A DNA stretch of 64,000 nt from an uncultured Bacteroidales bacterium (GCA_946412245.1 CAMKGM010000005.1:2447-66446), one strand, 5' to 3'; shown: positions 18,924-32,914, counted from the stretch's first letter. Numbers and translations are program-made. The notes: generated by a model not told the origin, from the sequence alone.

Positions 18924-21900
18924 ATGGAATATTCTTATATCGCTAATTCAGGCATTCAACTCCTTTCGTTTCCCATTGAAATCGATTCACAAGACATCTT
19001 CAAGAAGTGGTTCCGTGAATGGTATGACAAGGAGCAGGGCATTTATCATCTTGATGTGCTTGAATGCATCGACGATGACGGACGCTCAATCTTCTATTCG
19101 CAGAAAGATTTGTATGACAACGGCTATATGGCTAAGGGTGTGAAGAAACTCGATGCCGCACAAATTGAGCGCGATGGTTTTATCAAGCCCATTGCTGTGG
19201 ACTATGGCACGGGAGAGTTGAGCGAGGAAATCTACAAGATGTCGTTCAGCGACACCTCAAACAAGTTGAGCAACCTCATCAACGTGTGGTTGCCTGTTCC
19301 GTATTTCAAACTTCGCACACCCGAGAATTTTGAGATGGGGCCTTTCAATTGGGTCCGCTGCAAGTTCATTCCGCGGGGCGAGGAAGAGGGAAAGATGAAG
19401 TTTGTGGTCATTCTTGCCATTGACACACGCGTTGACTATAATGCAGGTAAGTATGCCGAGTCGCCGGTTTTCTCCGACAAGTTCCAGGGCGAAATTGAGT
19501 TTGAGGTGTGCTCTAACGATATTCTGCTCACACAATATTGCTCGGCATCGAACGAGAAGTGCAACTACATTGACGACTATCTGCGACGCCTTGTGCATCC
19601 GGGAGTGCGCAGCGTGGGTGCCATTCGCAACGAGAAGCACCGCATGTCGTACGTCTCTTCTTACTTCTATCTCATGAGCTATGTGGCTCAAAAGAAGAAA
19701 TTCCCCAAACTCAAGCTGCTGCGCGACAATGATGTGGAATGCCGCAACGTTGACATGATTGTTGACATAGGCAATTCACGCACCACCGCATTGCTTGTCG
19801 AGGGACCGCGCCGTCAGGACTTCAAGTCTATTGACCGCTTGAAACTCCAAGACTATACCCGCCTGATTACCGATGGCGACAATCCGCGCTTGCTTCAATA
19901 CGAGGGAGCGTTTGATATGCGTGTGGCCTTCCGCAAAGTGGACTTTGGCGATTGTGGACAAGAGGAGACTCGGCAGTTTATCTATCCCAGTCTGTTGCGT
20001 TTGGGTGCCGAGGCCAATTATCTGATTCATGCCAGTGTTGAGACCGAATTGAGCAGTGACTCTCTCTCTACTTATTCCAGCCCAAAACGCTATTTGTGGG
20101 ACGGAAAAAAGAACAAGCAGGAGTGGGAATATGTGGTACTCAAAGACGAGCGCACGCAGCACATTCTGGAGTTGAAAGGTATCACCGACCATCTGCTTGA
20201 AGATGGGCGCGTAGATTTGGAGCATGGCGGCGGCACCCATTATTATTCGCGCCGCTCGCTCATGACCTTCTCCTTCCTCGAGATGCTTGCTCAGGCAAGG
20301 ACTCAAATCAATAGCCCGGAATATCGCGGCTACCACGGCAAGGTGAGCATGCCGCGCCGCATCAGGCGAATCATGATTACTTGTCCCACCACCATGTCAA
20401 AGACCGAGCGCTTTGCCCTGGTCAATTGCGCACGCGATGCCCAGAAACTCATGGCTGATTTCTATCACGAAACTGAGCCGGTGGAAATTGTGCCTCTCTA
20501 CAAGAACCGCAACGATGAGGAACCCGTGTGGTACTACGACGAGGCCACTTGCTCGCAATTGGTCTATATGTATGCCGAGGTGGGCTATAAGTACAAGGGT
20601 AATTGCGACGAGTTCTTCAAACTCTACGGCAAGGAGAAAAACGGCAAGCCATGCCTCACCGTGGGGTCGCTAGACATCGGTGCCGGCACCTCCGACCTCA
20701 TGATTTGCGACTATGCGTTCGATAAAAATCCGGTCACCACGCTCATCCCCGATCCGGTGTTCTACGACAGTTTCTATTACGCCGGCGACGATATGCTCCG
20801 TGCGCTCATTCAGGGCATCATCATTGAGGGTGAGAACTCAGCCATCAGAAAGAATCTGCCCGATATGCCGGCAGAACAGTTCCGCCAACTCATGAAGGAC
20901 TTCTTCGGCCACGATTATGCCGAGTTGTCGATGCACAATCGCATCATGCGGCGCGATTTTAACCTGCAGGTATCGGTGCCGCTCATGTACTACTTCCTGC
21001 AGTTGCTCAGCGACGGCAGTGCCGATTGCACTGTGCATTACAAGGATGTGTGGGAGGGTAACGAACCCAGCGAGATGGTGCTGCGGCGCTTTGAAGAACA
21101 CTTTGGGCTCGACCTGCGCAAGATGGAGTGGAACTATGTCGCCGACGAGGTGGCGCAAATCGTGACCAACTCGTTCGACGGGCTACTCAAGAAAGTGGCT
21201 GCCATCATGTTTACTTATCATTGCGACATCGTGATTCTGTCGGGCAGACCCACCGCGCTCAAACCCATTCGCGACATCTTCCTGAAATACTACACCGTGG
21301 CTCCTGACCGACTCATTTCGCTTAACGACTACTATGCCGGCGACTGGTATCCAAGCCGCAATACCGGCTACATTCGCGACACCAAGACTGTGGTGGTGCT
21401 GGGTGCAGCCATTGCCTACTATGCCACCGACGGCTCCATGTTCGAGAACTTCGTGCTCGACACTTCGCTCATGGCAAGCAAACTCAAGTCGGTGGTCAAC
21501 TATGTGGAGACTCCACCGCTGAACAAGGAAAAATATGTGGTGCAACCTAACAAGAACAATGGCGAAATCGTTGTTAAGGCACTCCCCACTTATCTCAATG
21601 TGAAGCAGGTTGACATTGATGCCTATCCTGCGCGTCAACTCTATGCCATCGACTTCAACTACGATTTGATGATGGACTCCATCAGGCGACGCATGGAAGA
21701 CGATGGACTCGATGTGATTGACGCCGCCGTGGTCGCCAAACTCAACGAGGATTGCGACCGTCTGCGTCACCGAATGCCCTTCAGAGTGACGATTGAGCGG
21801 GATCCCAATGACCGTGAGAACCTTGAAATCTCGTCAATTACCGATGTGGACGGCAATGACATTCCGCCTCGCGATATCGAAATCACGATTCAGAGTCTGG

Positions 21901-21947
21901 GAACAGGCGATTGCTATTGGCTCGATTCAGGCGAATTTAACTTCTAA
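18924..21947 (+). CDS. srfB: SrfB-family protein (actin/Hsp70-like ATPase fold)
   Basis: 1007 aa; phosphate-1 motif DMIVDIGNSRTTALL; phosphate-2 motif SLDIGAGTSD; adenosine-region ILSGRPTAL; size, motifs and adjacency to an SrfC-like gene fit the SrfB family as I recall it. Confidence 0.8.
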   Translation: MEYSYIANSGIQLLSFPIEIDSQDIFKKWFREWYDKEQGIYHLDVLECIDDDGRSIFYSQKDLYDNGYMAKGVKKLDAAQIERDGFIKPIAVDYGTGELSEEIYKMSFSDTSNKLSNLINVWLPVPYFKLRTPENFEMGPFNWVRCKFIPRGEEEGKMKFVVILAIDTRVDYNAGKYAESPVFSDKFQGEIEFEVCSNDILLTQYCSASNEKCNYIDDYLRRLVHPGVRSVGAIRNEKHRMSYVSSYFYLMSYVAQKKKFPKLKLLRDNDVECRNVDMIVDIGNSRTTALLVEGPRRQDFKSIDRLKLQDYTRLITDGDNPRLLQYEGAFDMRVAFRKVDFGDCGQEETRQFIYPSLLRLGAEANYLIHASVETELSSDSLSTYSSPKRYLWDGKKNKQEWEYVVLKDERTQHILELKGITDHLLEDGRVDLEHGGGTHYYSRRSLMTFSFLEMLAQARTQINSPEYRGYHGKVSMPRRIRRIMITCPTTMSKTERFALVNCARDAQKLMADFYHETEPVEIVPLYKNRNDEEPVWYYDEATCSQLVYMYAEVGYKYKGNCDEFFKLYGKEKNGKPCLTVGSLDIGAGTSDLMICDYAFDKNPVTTLIPDPVFYDSFYYAGDDMLRALIQGIIIEGENSAIRKNLPDMPAEQFRQLMKDFFGHDYAELSMHNRIMRRDFNLQVSVPLMYYFLQLLSDGSADCTVHYKDVWEGNEPSEMVLRRFEEHFGLDLRKMEWNYVADEVAQIVTNSFDGLLKKVAAIMFTYHCDIVILSGRPTALKPIRDIFLKYYTVAPDRLISLNDYYAGDWYPSRNTGYIRDTKTVVVLGAAIAYYATDGSMFENFVLDTSLMASKLKSVVNYVETPPLNKEKYVVQPNKNNGEIVVKALPTYLNVKQVDIDAYPARQLYAIDFNYDLMMDSIRRRMEDDGLDVIDAAVVAKLNEDCDRLRHRMPFRVTIERDPNDRENLEISSITDVDGNDIPPRDIEITIQSLGTGDCYWLDSGEFNF

Positions 21948-21964
21948 TTCCTTAAATAGCGACG

Positions 21965-32071: not shown

Positions 32072-32074
32072 TCC

Positions 32075-32914
32075 ATGAAAACCGGCATCAAAATACTGCT
32101 GCTCATGCTGGCCATTGCCGGCGCAGTCTTCGGTGTACTCTACTGGCAAAAGACTCAGGTGGAGCCGCCTAAGAATATCTCGATTGAGGGCAATAACCTT
32201 GCTACACTCAAGGCTCATGTTGAGACGCTGAACGCCACACAGCAGGGCAGCGAACTCGATAAGGCGTTTGACCGTACGCTCGACGAACTGAATTTTATGA
32301 CCGCTGAAGGGCTCATTACTCACGAACAAAGTGATGAGCAACTGCGTGCTTTCGCTCCCGCTTATGCCAACGGTTACACTTCTCAAGCATTGAGCAAACT
32401 CGGCTCATCCTGGACGCATGACGACCTCAAAGCAATGGCGCAACGCTGCAAACTGCTGAGCAACCTCACCACTACCGATGGCAGCAAGGTGGTTGACGAT
32501 AGCGACGTGACGGGCCGAATCACCACAATCAACAAGGTGAATACCGACTATGGTAAGGCGAGTGCCATCGCGTCACAAACGCGTTTCGGCTCGGTGGCGT
32601 CGGCAAAACAACGCATCAGCGATGCCGGTCGATACCGCAATGACACCTACCTGCGCCACTGCGACAACCTCGTTACGCGACTGCAGGCTCTGCCCGGCAA
32701 GATTGGCGATTCGCACTTCGCCACCGTCAGGGCTGCCGTCAATGCCTTTGTTGGCAATCCCCAGGCTTACTCAGATATTAATGCCAAAAAGAATGATTTG
32801 TACAAACGCATCTCAGAGTACTCCGGTATGACTCACCGGTATGGCAGCGACAAGGGATCGGGCGAGTTGCATAGCAAGGTCAGCAGTGTCTCAGTACCTT
32901 CCTACTACTATTAA
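32075..32914 (+). CDS. N-terminally membrane-anchored alpha-helical protein, function unknown; last gene of the operon
   Basis: 279 aa; TM ILLLMLAIAGAVFGVLYW; 3-nt gap from the upstream gene. Confidence 0.75.
   Translation: MKTGIKILLLMLAIAGAVFGVLYWQKTQVEPPKNISIEGNNLATLKAHVETLNATQQGSELDKAFDRTLDELNFMTAEGLITHEQSDEQLRAFAPAYANGYTSQALSKLGSSWTHDDLKAMAQRCKLLSNLTTTDGSKVVDDSDVTGRITTINKVNTDYGKASAIASQTRFGSVASAKQRISDAGRYRNDTYLRHCDNLVTRLQALPGKIGDSHFATVRAAVNAFVGNPQAYSDINAKKNDLYKRISEYSGMTHRYGSDKGSGELHSKVSSVSVPSYYY

Follow-up and report, generated by a model that had tools for sequence, protein, structure and literature searches.

SrfABC of Proteobacteria, known from Salmonella, where it is SsrB-regulated, from Xenorhabdus stockiae and from Haemophilus parainfluenzae, is the closest described relative of the locus analysed here, a seven-gene cassette at positions 18924-32914 of a 64-kb stretch of DNA from an uncultured Bacteroidales bacterium (a rumen Muribaculaceae genome); this whole stretch is referred to as the window, and all positions are counted in it. 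SrfB and SrfC have long been annotated as 'virulence factors', ever since their discovery in Salmonella, with a mechanism lacking. According to a 2026 preprint, proteobacterial SrfA consists of a cytoplasmic N-domain, a single transmembrane (TM) helix and a periplasmic lipocalin-like domain; the preprint also presents an AlphaFold3 model in which SrfB and SrfC are docked on SrfA, and argues that Haemophilus SrfABC is exported in outer-membrane vesicles (OMVs) (10.64898/2026.09.18.752743). Cytotoxic and insecticidal activity is reported for heterologously made X. stockiae SrfABC (PMC6950479).

We find that the window cassette is a Bacteroidales-type expansion of SrfABC; comparative sequence analysis identifies genes 1-3 and 5 and establishes their intact active sites, the predicted topology and the co-conservation of the genes. 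Srf membership was judged by curated family models. The cassette shares with the proteobacterial systems a full-length SrfB (gene 1) and SrfC (gene 2) that score above the curated cut-offs, and a bitopic third protein (gene 3) whose SrfA-N-like domain, predicted to be cytoplasmic, is joined through one TM helix to a periplasmic domain. It differs in that SrfABC is ordered A-B-C, whereas in the window and in all related loci the SrfA-like gene follows SrfB and SrfC; in that an S8 subtilase with an intact triad stands in place of the periplasmic lipocalin-like SrfA-C; and in four additional conserved genes, which encode a protein with four TM segments (gene 4), a DO-GTPase-like GTPase (gene 5) and two anchored proteins (genes 6 and 7). 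The Lol-like ABC, vWA and FGE neighbours of proteobacterial SrfABC are not seen at the window cassette, and cassettes of the window type are hosted, unlike proteobacterial SrfABC, by gut and rumen Bacteroidales. By its SrfB and SrfC sequences the cassette belongs with the Srf systems, but its gene 3 scores below the cut-off of the SrfA model and has no lipocalin domain, and its gene order is not the canonical one.

A second set of relatives is formed by the DO-GTPase/GAP1 systems (Kaur, Burroughs, Iyer and Aravind, eLife 2020; PMC7159879), with which the cassette shares a TRAFAC GTPase bearing the Walker-B glutamate that those authors give as diagnostic of DO-GTPases, a partner gene overlapping directly downstream of the GTPase, TM components and, in its longer versions, both a Zn-ribbon protein and a further, paralogous GTPase. 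Some of the described systems also associate with an Hsp70-fold ATPase. DO-GTPase systems typically have nucleotide-targeting effectors, whereas none is present in the window cassette, which holds a single GTPase of this type. LeoA/LeoBC ('Eleos') and DynA likewise combine a large membrane-associated GTPase with membrane proteins in an operon and have a proposed envelope role, but SrfC matches neither the PADLOC Leo models nor dynamin-family PDB chains. IetAS, an anti-phage and anti-plasmid system of ATPase and S8 protease, also pairs an S8 protease with an NTPase in a mobile cassette; the likeness to IetS is, however, generic to S8 (PADLOC E 1e-6; NCBIfam 22 bits against a 900-bit cut-off), the window lacks an IetA homologue, and the window protease is predicted to be membrane-anchored and periplasmic. 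The cassette is absent from PADLOC 2.0 and we found no description of it in the literature searched, in agreement with the suggestion, made in an initial annotation of the window, that it is not yet catalogued.

Conservation of the seven-gene cassette

Seven plus-strand open reading frames (ORFs) tile the locus with intergenic gaps of 17, 5, 40, 25, -4 and 3 nt (Table 1), so that the gene count, common direction and gaps given in the initial annotation agree exactly with the ORF listing. A gene 5 profile searched over one genome per GTDB species returned 153 relatives, and 80 loci were fetched for analysis, from Muribaculaceae, Prevotella/Xylanibacter, Bacteroides, Phocaeicola, Alistipes, Parabacteroides and others. 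Locus content was scored with hidden Markov models built from the first loci; 66 loci have a full upstream flank and 61 a downstream flank. Gene order is fixed across the 80 loci, all in genomes of other species. SrfB, SrfC, the gene 3 N-domain and gene 4 are found in 63 of the 66 upstream-complete loci and the S8 domain in 60, and the downstream-complete loci carry gene 6 in 53/61 and gene 7 in 59/61 cases. Every match to a cassette gene in the related loci lies on the same strand, and the median gaps between adjacent cassette genes are -1 to 27 nt; that between genes 5 and 6 is -1 nt (68 loci), the two overlapping in 35/68. Among 20 loci fetched in a separate SrfC survey, the order SrfB-SrfC-S8-gene 4-gene 5-gene 6-gene 7 is kept genus-wide at 22-39% identity, and SrfB-SrfC-S8-gene 4-gene 5 is kept in other families of the phylum. 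By these comparative criteria the seven genes form one strongly conserved operon-like unit, and the proposal of an expanded Bacteroidota form of Srf is borne out by co-conservation in a fixed order at no fewer than 80 loci.

Around this fixed core the cassette varies by addition and exchange. Longer versions insert a Zn-ribbon protein between genes 4 and 5 (27 loci), add a coiled-coil protein after gene 7 (31 loci) or carry a second gene-5-like GTPase (25/61 loci). Accessory genes in the same direction are also found repeatedly on the downstream side: 14 loci (e.g. L050:16694-18808) have a TPR protein with a retropepsin-like aspartyl protease domain at its end, and 4-6 loci (e.g. L069:18799-20169) a protein joining DUF1810 to an ADP-ribosylglycohydrolase. 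At three loci (L100, L102 and L114) a different periplasmic domain, here called c10-type, replaces S8, and gene 7 is not detected there; at several others the c10-type domain is fused in addition to S8. A more distant Srf subtype, found in the order-level genomes G487, G507 and G492 (L026-L029), has no gene 4 or gene 5 homologue. Within it, L027-L029 place a coiled-coil-like gene of 325-340 aa between SrfB and SrfC, L028 and L029 have, after SrfC, an S8 fusion together with a number of paralogous proteins that combine SrfA-N with a TM segment, and L026 ends just after SrfC.

Active sites and predicted topology of the components

Gene 1 matches the SrfB family PF07520 at 657.7 bits (cut-off 27.1; E 4e-197) over residues 3-1005, which is its full length. 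The motifs DxGNSxT (DIGNSRT in the window), DIGAGTSD (LDIGAGTSD) and LSGRP are invariant in 28/28 sequences, which identifies in SrfB the phosphate-1, phosphate-2 and adenosine motifs of ASKHA (actin/Hsp70) ATPases. Gene 2, a large P-loop GTPase, matches PF10139 at 307.6 bits (cut-off 28.1; E 3e-91) and is the one SrfC copy in the genome; its G1 motif GESQVGKS, T112, the G3 motif DFPG and TKFN are kept in 60-63 of 63 sequences. By hydropathy, SrfB, SrfC and gene 5 lack both TM segments and signal peptides, and all three are predicted to be cytoplasmic. The description of SrfC as dynamin-like in the initial annotation was not confirmed: SrfC gives no match to the PADLOC LeoA and LeoBC models, and a profile of its residues 1-500 searched against PDB sequences returns spurious nanobody matches only and no dynamin-family chain. 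PDB searches with the single sequences of genes 1, 2 and 5 return nothing.

Gene 3 is laid out as an SrfA-N-like domain (aa 1-150), two beta repeats, a TM helix, a Gly/Pro-rich linker and an S8 subtilase, the last standing where SrfA has its lipocalin-like domain. Because its single, very hydrophobic TM helix has Lys/Arg on the N-terminal side, residues 1-330 are predicted to be cytoplasmic and the protease to face the periplasm from an inner-membrane anchor, in line with the earlier proposal of a periplasmic protease. The protease also appears intact, as had been proposed, with the triad D574/H607/S789 and the oxyanion residue N720 present in 62/62 sequences; the S8 domain is the sole match of the operon proteins in a PHROGs search. 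The first 150 residues, with the motifs FxAxP...EW and ...WG, recur in many related loci, joined to a TM helix and to differing C-terminal domains. For this N-domain the top NCBIfam match in the window is SrfA_fam NF040486 (E 0.011-0.035, colinear), and 11/21 gene 3 relatives match the same model, the best at E 6e-16, so that the label 'SrfA/S8' given to gene 3 at the outset is upheld. It is likely, on this profile evidence, that the gene 3 N-domain is homologous to that of SrfA. Given these matches and the architecture that the preprint reports for SrfA (N-domain, TM helix, periplasmic domain), gene 3 is best read as an SrfA equivalent whose periplasmic domain has been exchanged for a protease.

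Gene 5 combines N-terminal BamD/YfiO-like helical repeats (aa 1-265) with a TRAFAC GTPase (aa 266-550, nt 29376-30230), and an AlphaFold2 model has a predicted local distance difference test score (pLDDT) of 87. Foldseek places the C-terminal half with TRAFAC GTPases (EF-Tu, EngB, YcjX and Rab; E 2e-5 to 1e-3), and a profile of gene 5 searched against the PDB finds 9hiv_D at 4e-6 and BamD, matches that cover the N-terminal helical repeats. The G1 motif GxxxSGK[ST], the switch-I residue T337, DxxGE and [ST]KxD are invariant across an alignment of 21 homologues, as is the Walker-B glutamate E367 (G366-E367, in DLAGE). With the motifs of SrfB, SrfC and gene 5 conserved across homologues, the three intact NTPase motif sets read from the window at first inspection are substantiated. 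DO-GTPase1 (PF19975) is matched by 13 of the 21 gene 5 relatives, the best at 2.3e-8, and DO-GTPase2 (PF19993) by 5; among TRAFAC GTPases, gene 5 is on these matches a distant relative of the DO-GTPases, which are known from conflict systems described by computation. The link to GTPase and GAP1-type conflict modules drawn in the initial annotation stands in its first part, through these matches and the invariant glutamate, but not in its second, as no GAP1 or GASH component was detected: GAP1-N, -M and -C are matched neither by genes 4, 6 and 7 (E <= 0.01) nor by 32 gene 6 homologues (E <= 0.1), and no Pfam match to a GASH or FNIII-repeat partner was obtained among the seven proteins.

TM segments are predicted in genes 3, 4, 6 and 7 by hydropathy and the positive-inside rule, the four membrane proteins that the seven genes had been said to encode. 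In gene 4 a periplasmic helical loop of ~170 aa (aa 100-272) accompanies four TM segments, and with 25 invariant residues among 29 homologues this protein is the best conserved of the small ones. Gene 6, whose reading frame overlaps gene 5 by 4 nt (ATGA) and which has no signal peptide, is modelled by AlphaFold2 with a pLDDT of 85 (>90 over aa 1-360). A beta-beta-alpha-beta-beta-beta-alpha-alpha N-domain (aa 1-135) leads into three beta-sandwich domains, and a TM helix separates this large, predicted cytoplasmic part from a helical domain in the periplasm; a PEGA domain is matched in 8/32 of the gene 6 homologues, and the gene 6 model has no Foldseek match in the PDB at E <= 1e-3. The modelled N-domain gives a hint of a longin-like fold. 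Gene 7 appears as a periplasmic helical protein with an N-terminal anchor (aa 4-22) and is the fastest-evolving component. No Pfam, NCBIfam, PADLOC, PHROG or PDB relative was found for genes 4, 6 and 7, the PDB having been searched with profiles; against Pfam and NCBIfam at E <= 0.01 genes 4-7 have no match, and among the seven proteins only SrfB, SrfC and the S8 domain do.

Two candidate features of gene 6 were rejected. Matches of its model to viral structures reflect a generic tandem beta-sandwich likeness to phage tail and baseplate proteins (TM-scores 0.11-0.18) and were not taken as a sign of phage kinship. At four congener loci (L032, L034, L037 and L040) one or two extra, shorter gene 6 paralogues lie downstream of the operon, and a suspected recombinase or shufflon beside them (cluster c11) looks like a low-complexity antisense ORF, an artefact of greedy ORF calling.

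Distribution, evolution and possible role

The cassette recurs in more than 150 gut and rumen Bacteroidales species, as counted by profile matches, and its distribution is patchy. SrfC is found in 4/401 phylum genomes and 13/71 congeners; an order-level search with the gene 5 profile mostly caught unspecific helical repeats, and the GTPase domain was matched in 4/301 genomes. Cultured carriers include Bacteroides stercorirosoris DSM 26884, Bacteroides muris, Xylanibacter ruminicola KHT3, Phocaeicola paurosaccharolyticus and Prevotella lacticifex, making Srf function open to genetic testing in commensals. Some cassette contigs (L074, L075, L077, L101, L102, L105 and L108) are filed under metagenome-assembled genomes of Flexilinea, Clostridiales, Dialister, Bifidobacteriaceae, Firmicutes, Oscillibacter and Bacilli; such labels most likely reflect contamination during binning rather than cross-phylum transfer.

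The operon occupies the same site, after FtsK, LolA and a thioredoxin-reductase-like gene (TrxR), only in the two closest relatives (TrxR 84-86% identical). TrxR is retained by a further eleven congeners, and LolA as well by ten of these, but the cassette is absent from that site, and the remaining carrier congeners have divergent versions, 22-39% identical, on other contigs. The long residence suggested by the host-like composition of the locus is therefore doubtful. Comparison with the empty sites reveals no clean insertion boundary, the region downstream of TrxR being variable and partly inverted in two of the genomes compared (L127 and L128). Gene 5 of the window is ~50% identical to copies in Duncaniella, Bacteroides and Xylanibacter and 26-34% identical to most congeners' copies, and this ~50% identity to copies in other families argues that the window subtype moves horizontally among Bacteroidales. 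One copy lies on the 93-kb plasmid pSP2_1 of Runella sp. SP2 (NZ_CP031031.1; L136), where a long cassette at 4088-24815 directly follows BREX pglZ-brxL and comprises SrfB, SrfC, an S8 peptidase and eight hypothetical genes, then an M12 metallopeptidase; RefSeq names only SrfB, SrfC and the S8 peptidase and leaves the rest 'hypothetical'. No gene 5 homologue was found in phage records.

Comparison with the two closest relatives reveals a gradient of divergence along the cassette, identity falling from 88-92% for SrfB and 83-86% for SrfC through ~76% for gene 3 and 70-75% for gene 5 to 63-67% for gene 4, 56-57% for gene 6 and 53-54% for gene 7. The nonsynonymous substitution rate (dN) climbs from 0.05-0.08 to 0.42-0.44, with its peak in the periplasm-facing parts of genes 4, 6 and 7, and the periplasm-facing non-enzymatic parts evolve 5-8 times faster than SrfB. 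The ratio of nonsynonymous to synonymous rates (dN/dS) is 0.04-0.26 for each gene, indicating purifying selection and arguing that all seven ORFs are genuinely coding; the synonymous rate is saturated (dS >1), and only the dN gradient was used in these comparisons.

In the explanation that best accounts for the whole, to which we assign about an even chance, this SrfABC expansion is one inner-membrane-spanning, nucleotide-gated machine, with envelope conflict or surveillance as its likeliest role. The seven proteins would form a single complex across the inner membrane, with SrfB and SrfC docked on the gene 3 N-domain, after the AlphaFold3 model of SrfA (10.64898/2026.09.18.752743), and the gene 5 GTPase bound to the domains of gene 6 that face the cytoplasm. 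The periplasm-facing parts would be switched as nucleotide is bound and hydrolysed, and the anchored subtilase would be the sole enzyme through which the machine acts in the periplasm; a signal travelling in the reverse direction is just as conceivable. As for the role taken by itself, defence against phage or against attack by other bacteria is our tentative preference, held at somewhat less than even confidence, and a dedicated toxin or a housekeeping role is less likely. A conflict role is favoured by the patchiness and horizontal spread of the cassette, its fast-evolving outward parts, the swapping of domains and accessory genes, the DO-GTPase relation and the BREX-adjacent plasmid copy.

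Several observations weigh against this reading. The cassette encodes no nuclease, pore-former or other typical suicide effector, and the window copy is flanked by housekeeping genes (TrkA/TrkH, FtsK, LolA and the thioredoxin-reductase-like gene upstream, a flavodoxin/cyclophilin-like gene downstream). A census of the 141 nearest flanking ORFs reveals no enrichment of integrases or transposases; ADP-ribosylglycohydrolase (6) and DUF1810 (4) recur and the rest are mostly ordinary metabolic and transport genes, and PADLOC matches in the flanks are scattered and come without a baseline. In PADLOC-DB 2.0 the seven proteins have generic S8 similarity only (PDLC03014 at 7e-18; IetS at 1e-6), the other six matching nothing. 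Both family links are transitive: the window gene 3 N-domain scores 13.5-15.1 bits, short of the 150-bit cut-off of NF040486, and window gene 5 itself has no DO-GTPase match at E <= 1. The Foldseek matches of the gene 6 N-domain to the longin, DENN and Ragulator GTPase-partner domains are weak (probability 0.4-0.5), and, with purifying selection everywhere, the faster change of genes 6 and 7 could reflect relaxed constraint.

A more elaborate form of this reading, in which the cassette is the core of an envelope-spanning Bacteroidota immune machine of an unrecognised class, strikes us as somewhat unlikely in its full extent. Here an intruder at the inner membrane, for instance the ejection apparatus of a phage or an effector injected by another cell, would be sensed by the periplasmic portions of genes 4, 6 and 7, which evolve fast. 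The GTPase switch of gene 5, with a longin-like domain of gene 6 as its partner, would relay the detection, and the SrfB and SrfC NTPases on their SrfA-like anchor would activate or reposition the periplasmic subtilase, which would destroy the intruder or trigger abortive death. This scheme, if true, would give Srf proteins in general their first mechanistic function. The variant in any case suggests attachment partners for SrfB and SrfC and links the pair with a GTPase switch module that has relatives among predicted conflict systems, and it presents the SrfA position as what may be a modular membrane anchor whose outward domain can, judging by the conserved triad, be an active protease. A role in defence or antagonism would imply an envelope-level mechanism that current defence catalogues have missed and that is relevant to gut phage-bacterium dynamics.

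Apart from conflict, the cassette might serve envelope maintenance, that is, inner-membrane remodelling or repair, or the processing of periplasmic or lipoprotein substrates, for example under envelope stress, with the NTPases giving energy or timing and the protease acting as a quality-control or maturation enzyme. The placement of the window copy among housekeeping envelope genes (FtsK, LolA), its host-like G+C, the purifying selection throughout and the ordinary metabolic and transport genes that mostly flank it elsewhere all suit this reading, and the BamD/YfiO-like repeats of gene 5 and the four TM segments and invariant polar residues of gene 4 would be in keeping with a part in envelope assembly. 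Maintenance fits poorly, however, with a cassette present in only ~1% of phylum genomes and 18% of congeners, a site that is empty in 11 congeners, subtypes common across families, a plasmid copy beside BREX, and domain swapping with variable accessory genes, and we hold it to be unlikely.

We regard as quite improbable an offensive toxin or vesicle cargo, in which a complex including the protease is delivered to other cells or to the host. A patchy, horizontally moving distribution would also suit an antagonism factor, and Bacteroidales make many OMVs. The precedents are the cytotoxic and insecticidal activity reported for X. stockiae SrfABC (PMC6950479) and the OMV export argued for Haemophilus (10.64898/2026.09.18.752743), but these toxin reports cover a different three-gene architecture with a lipocalin-type SrfA. 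In the window cassette, SrfB, SrfC and gene 5 have neither signal peptide nor TM segment, the protease and genes 4, 6 and 7 are predicted to be anchored in the inner membrane. A secretin, an outer-membrane component and an immunity gene are all lacking from the operon, as is any lipoprotein signal, and the conservation of three NTPase active sites suits a regulated machine better than a cargo. That two independent systems travel together, SrfB-SrfC-SrfA/S8 (genes 1-3) and a DO-GTPase-like membrane module (genes 4-7), is very doubtful. In its favour, L026-L029 carry SrfB and SrfC, two of them with S8/SrfA-N genes as well, but no gene 4 or 5 homologue; proteobacterial srfABC lacks gene 5, and DO-GTPase systems exist without Srf genes (PMC7159879). 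Against it, 63/66 gene 5 loci keep gene 4, the gene 3 N-domain, SrfB and SrfC on one strand in a constant order with gaps of a few nt, and no complete-flank gene 5 locus without Srf genes was seen, bar 3 unresolved contigs.

Locus boundaries and neighbouring genes

The coordinates of the cassette and its features are collected in Table 1. An intrinsic terminator of the upstream gene, a TAnnTTTG element before gene 1 and the finding of no strong internal terminator within the seven-gene block make a single promoter for all seven genes plausible; TAnnTTTG is present 34 times in the 64-kb window (both strands) and is a weak promoter signal. The downstream neighbour lies on the minus strand, convergent with the operon. 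G+C is 0.46-0.56 across the operon, compared with ~0.51 for the window.

Table 1. Positions of the cassette genes, their mapped domains and the flanking signals (aa, amino acids; nt, nucleotides)
Feature	Position (nt)	Strand	Details
Intrinsic terminator of upstream gene	18710-18738	+	13-bp stem, 6 G-C pairs, T-run; 5' operon boundary
Candidate Bacteroidetes -7 promoter element TATTTTTG (TAnnTTTG)	18842-18849	+	74 nt before gene 1 ATG
Gene 1, SrfB	18924-21947	+	1007 aa
Gene 2, SrfC	21965-24805	+	946 aa
Gene 3, SrfA equivalent (best reading) with S8 subtilase	24811-27450	+	879 aa
Gene 3 predicted TM helix	25807-25863	+	aa 333-351; very hydrophobic; Lys/Arg on N-terminal side
Gene 3 S8 subtilase domain	26509-27276	+	aa 567-822; PF00082, 146 bits, E 2e-42
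Gene 4, predicted 4-TM membrane protein	27491-28555	+	354 aa
Gene 5, TRAFAC GTPase	28581-30233	+	550 aa
Gene 6, predicted bitopic membrane protein	30230-32071	+	613 aa
Gene 6 predicted TM helix	31481-31537	+	aa 418-436
Gene 7, predicted anchored periplasmic protein	32075-32914	+	279 aa

Directly upstream of the operon, 17955-18686 (+) encodes a 243-aa protein with a signal-peptide-like N-terminus and no family match. It is 46-49% identical in the two closest relatives (TrxR, 84-86%), where it has a tandem duplicate, and it looks like a fast-evolving surface protein. The downstream flank begins with a flavodoxin/cyclophilin-like gene. Two proteins in the window end in type I dockerins, which would not be expected in Bacteroidota: this flavodoxin and cyclophilin-like protein, at 32931-33980 (-), and a GH16 glucanase-like protein of 1036 aa at 36133-39243 (+).

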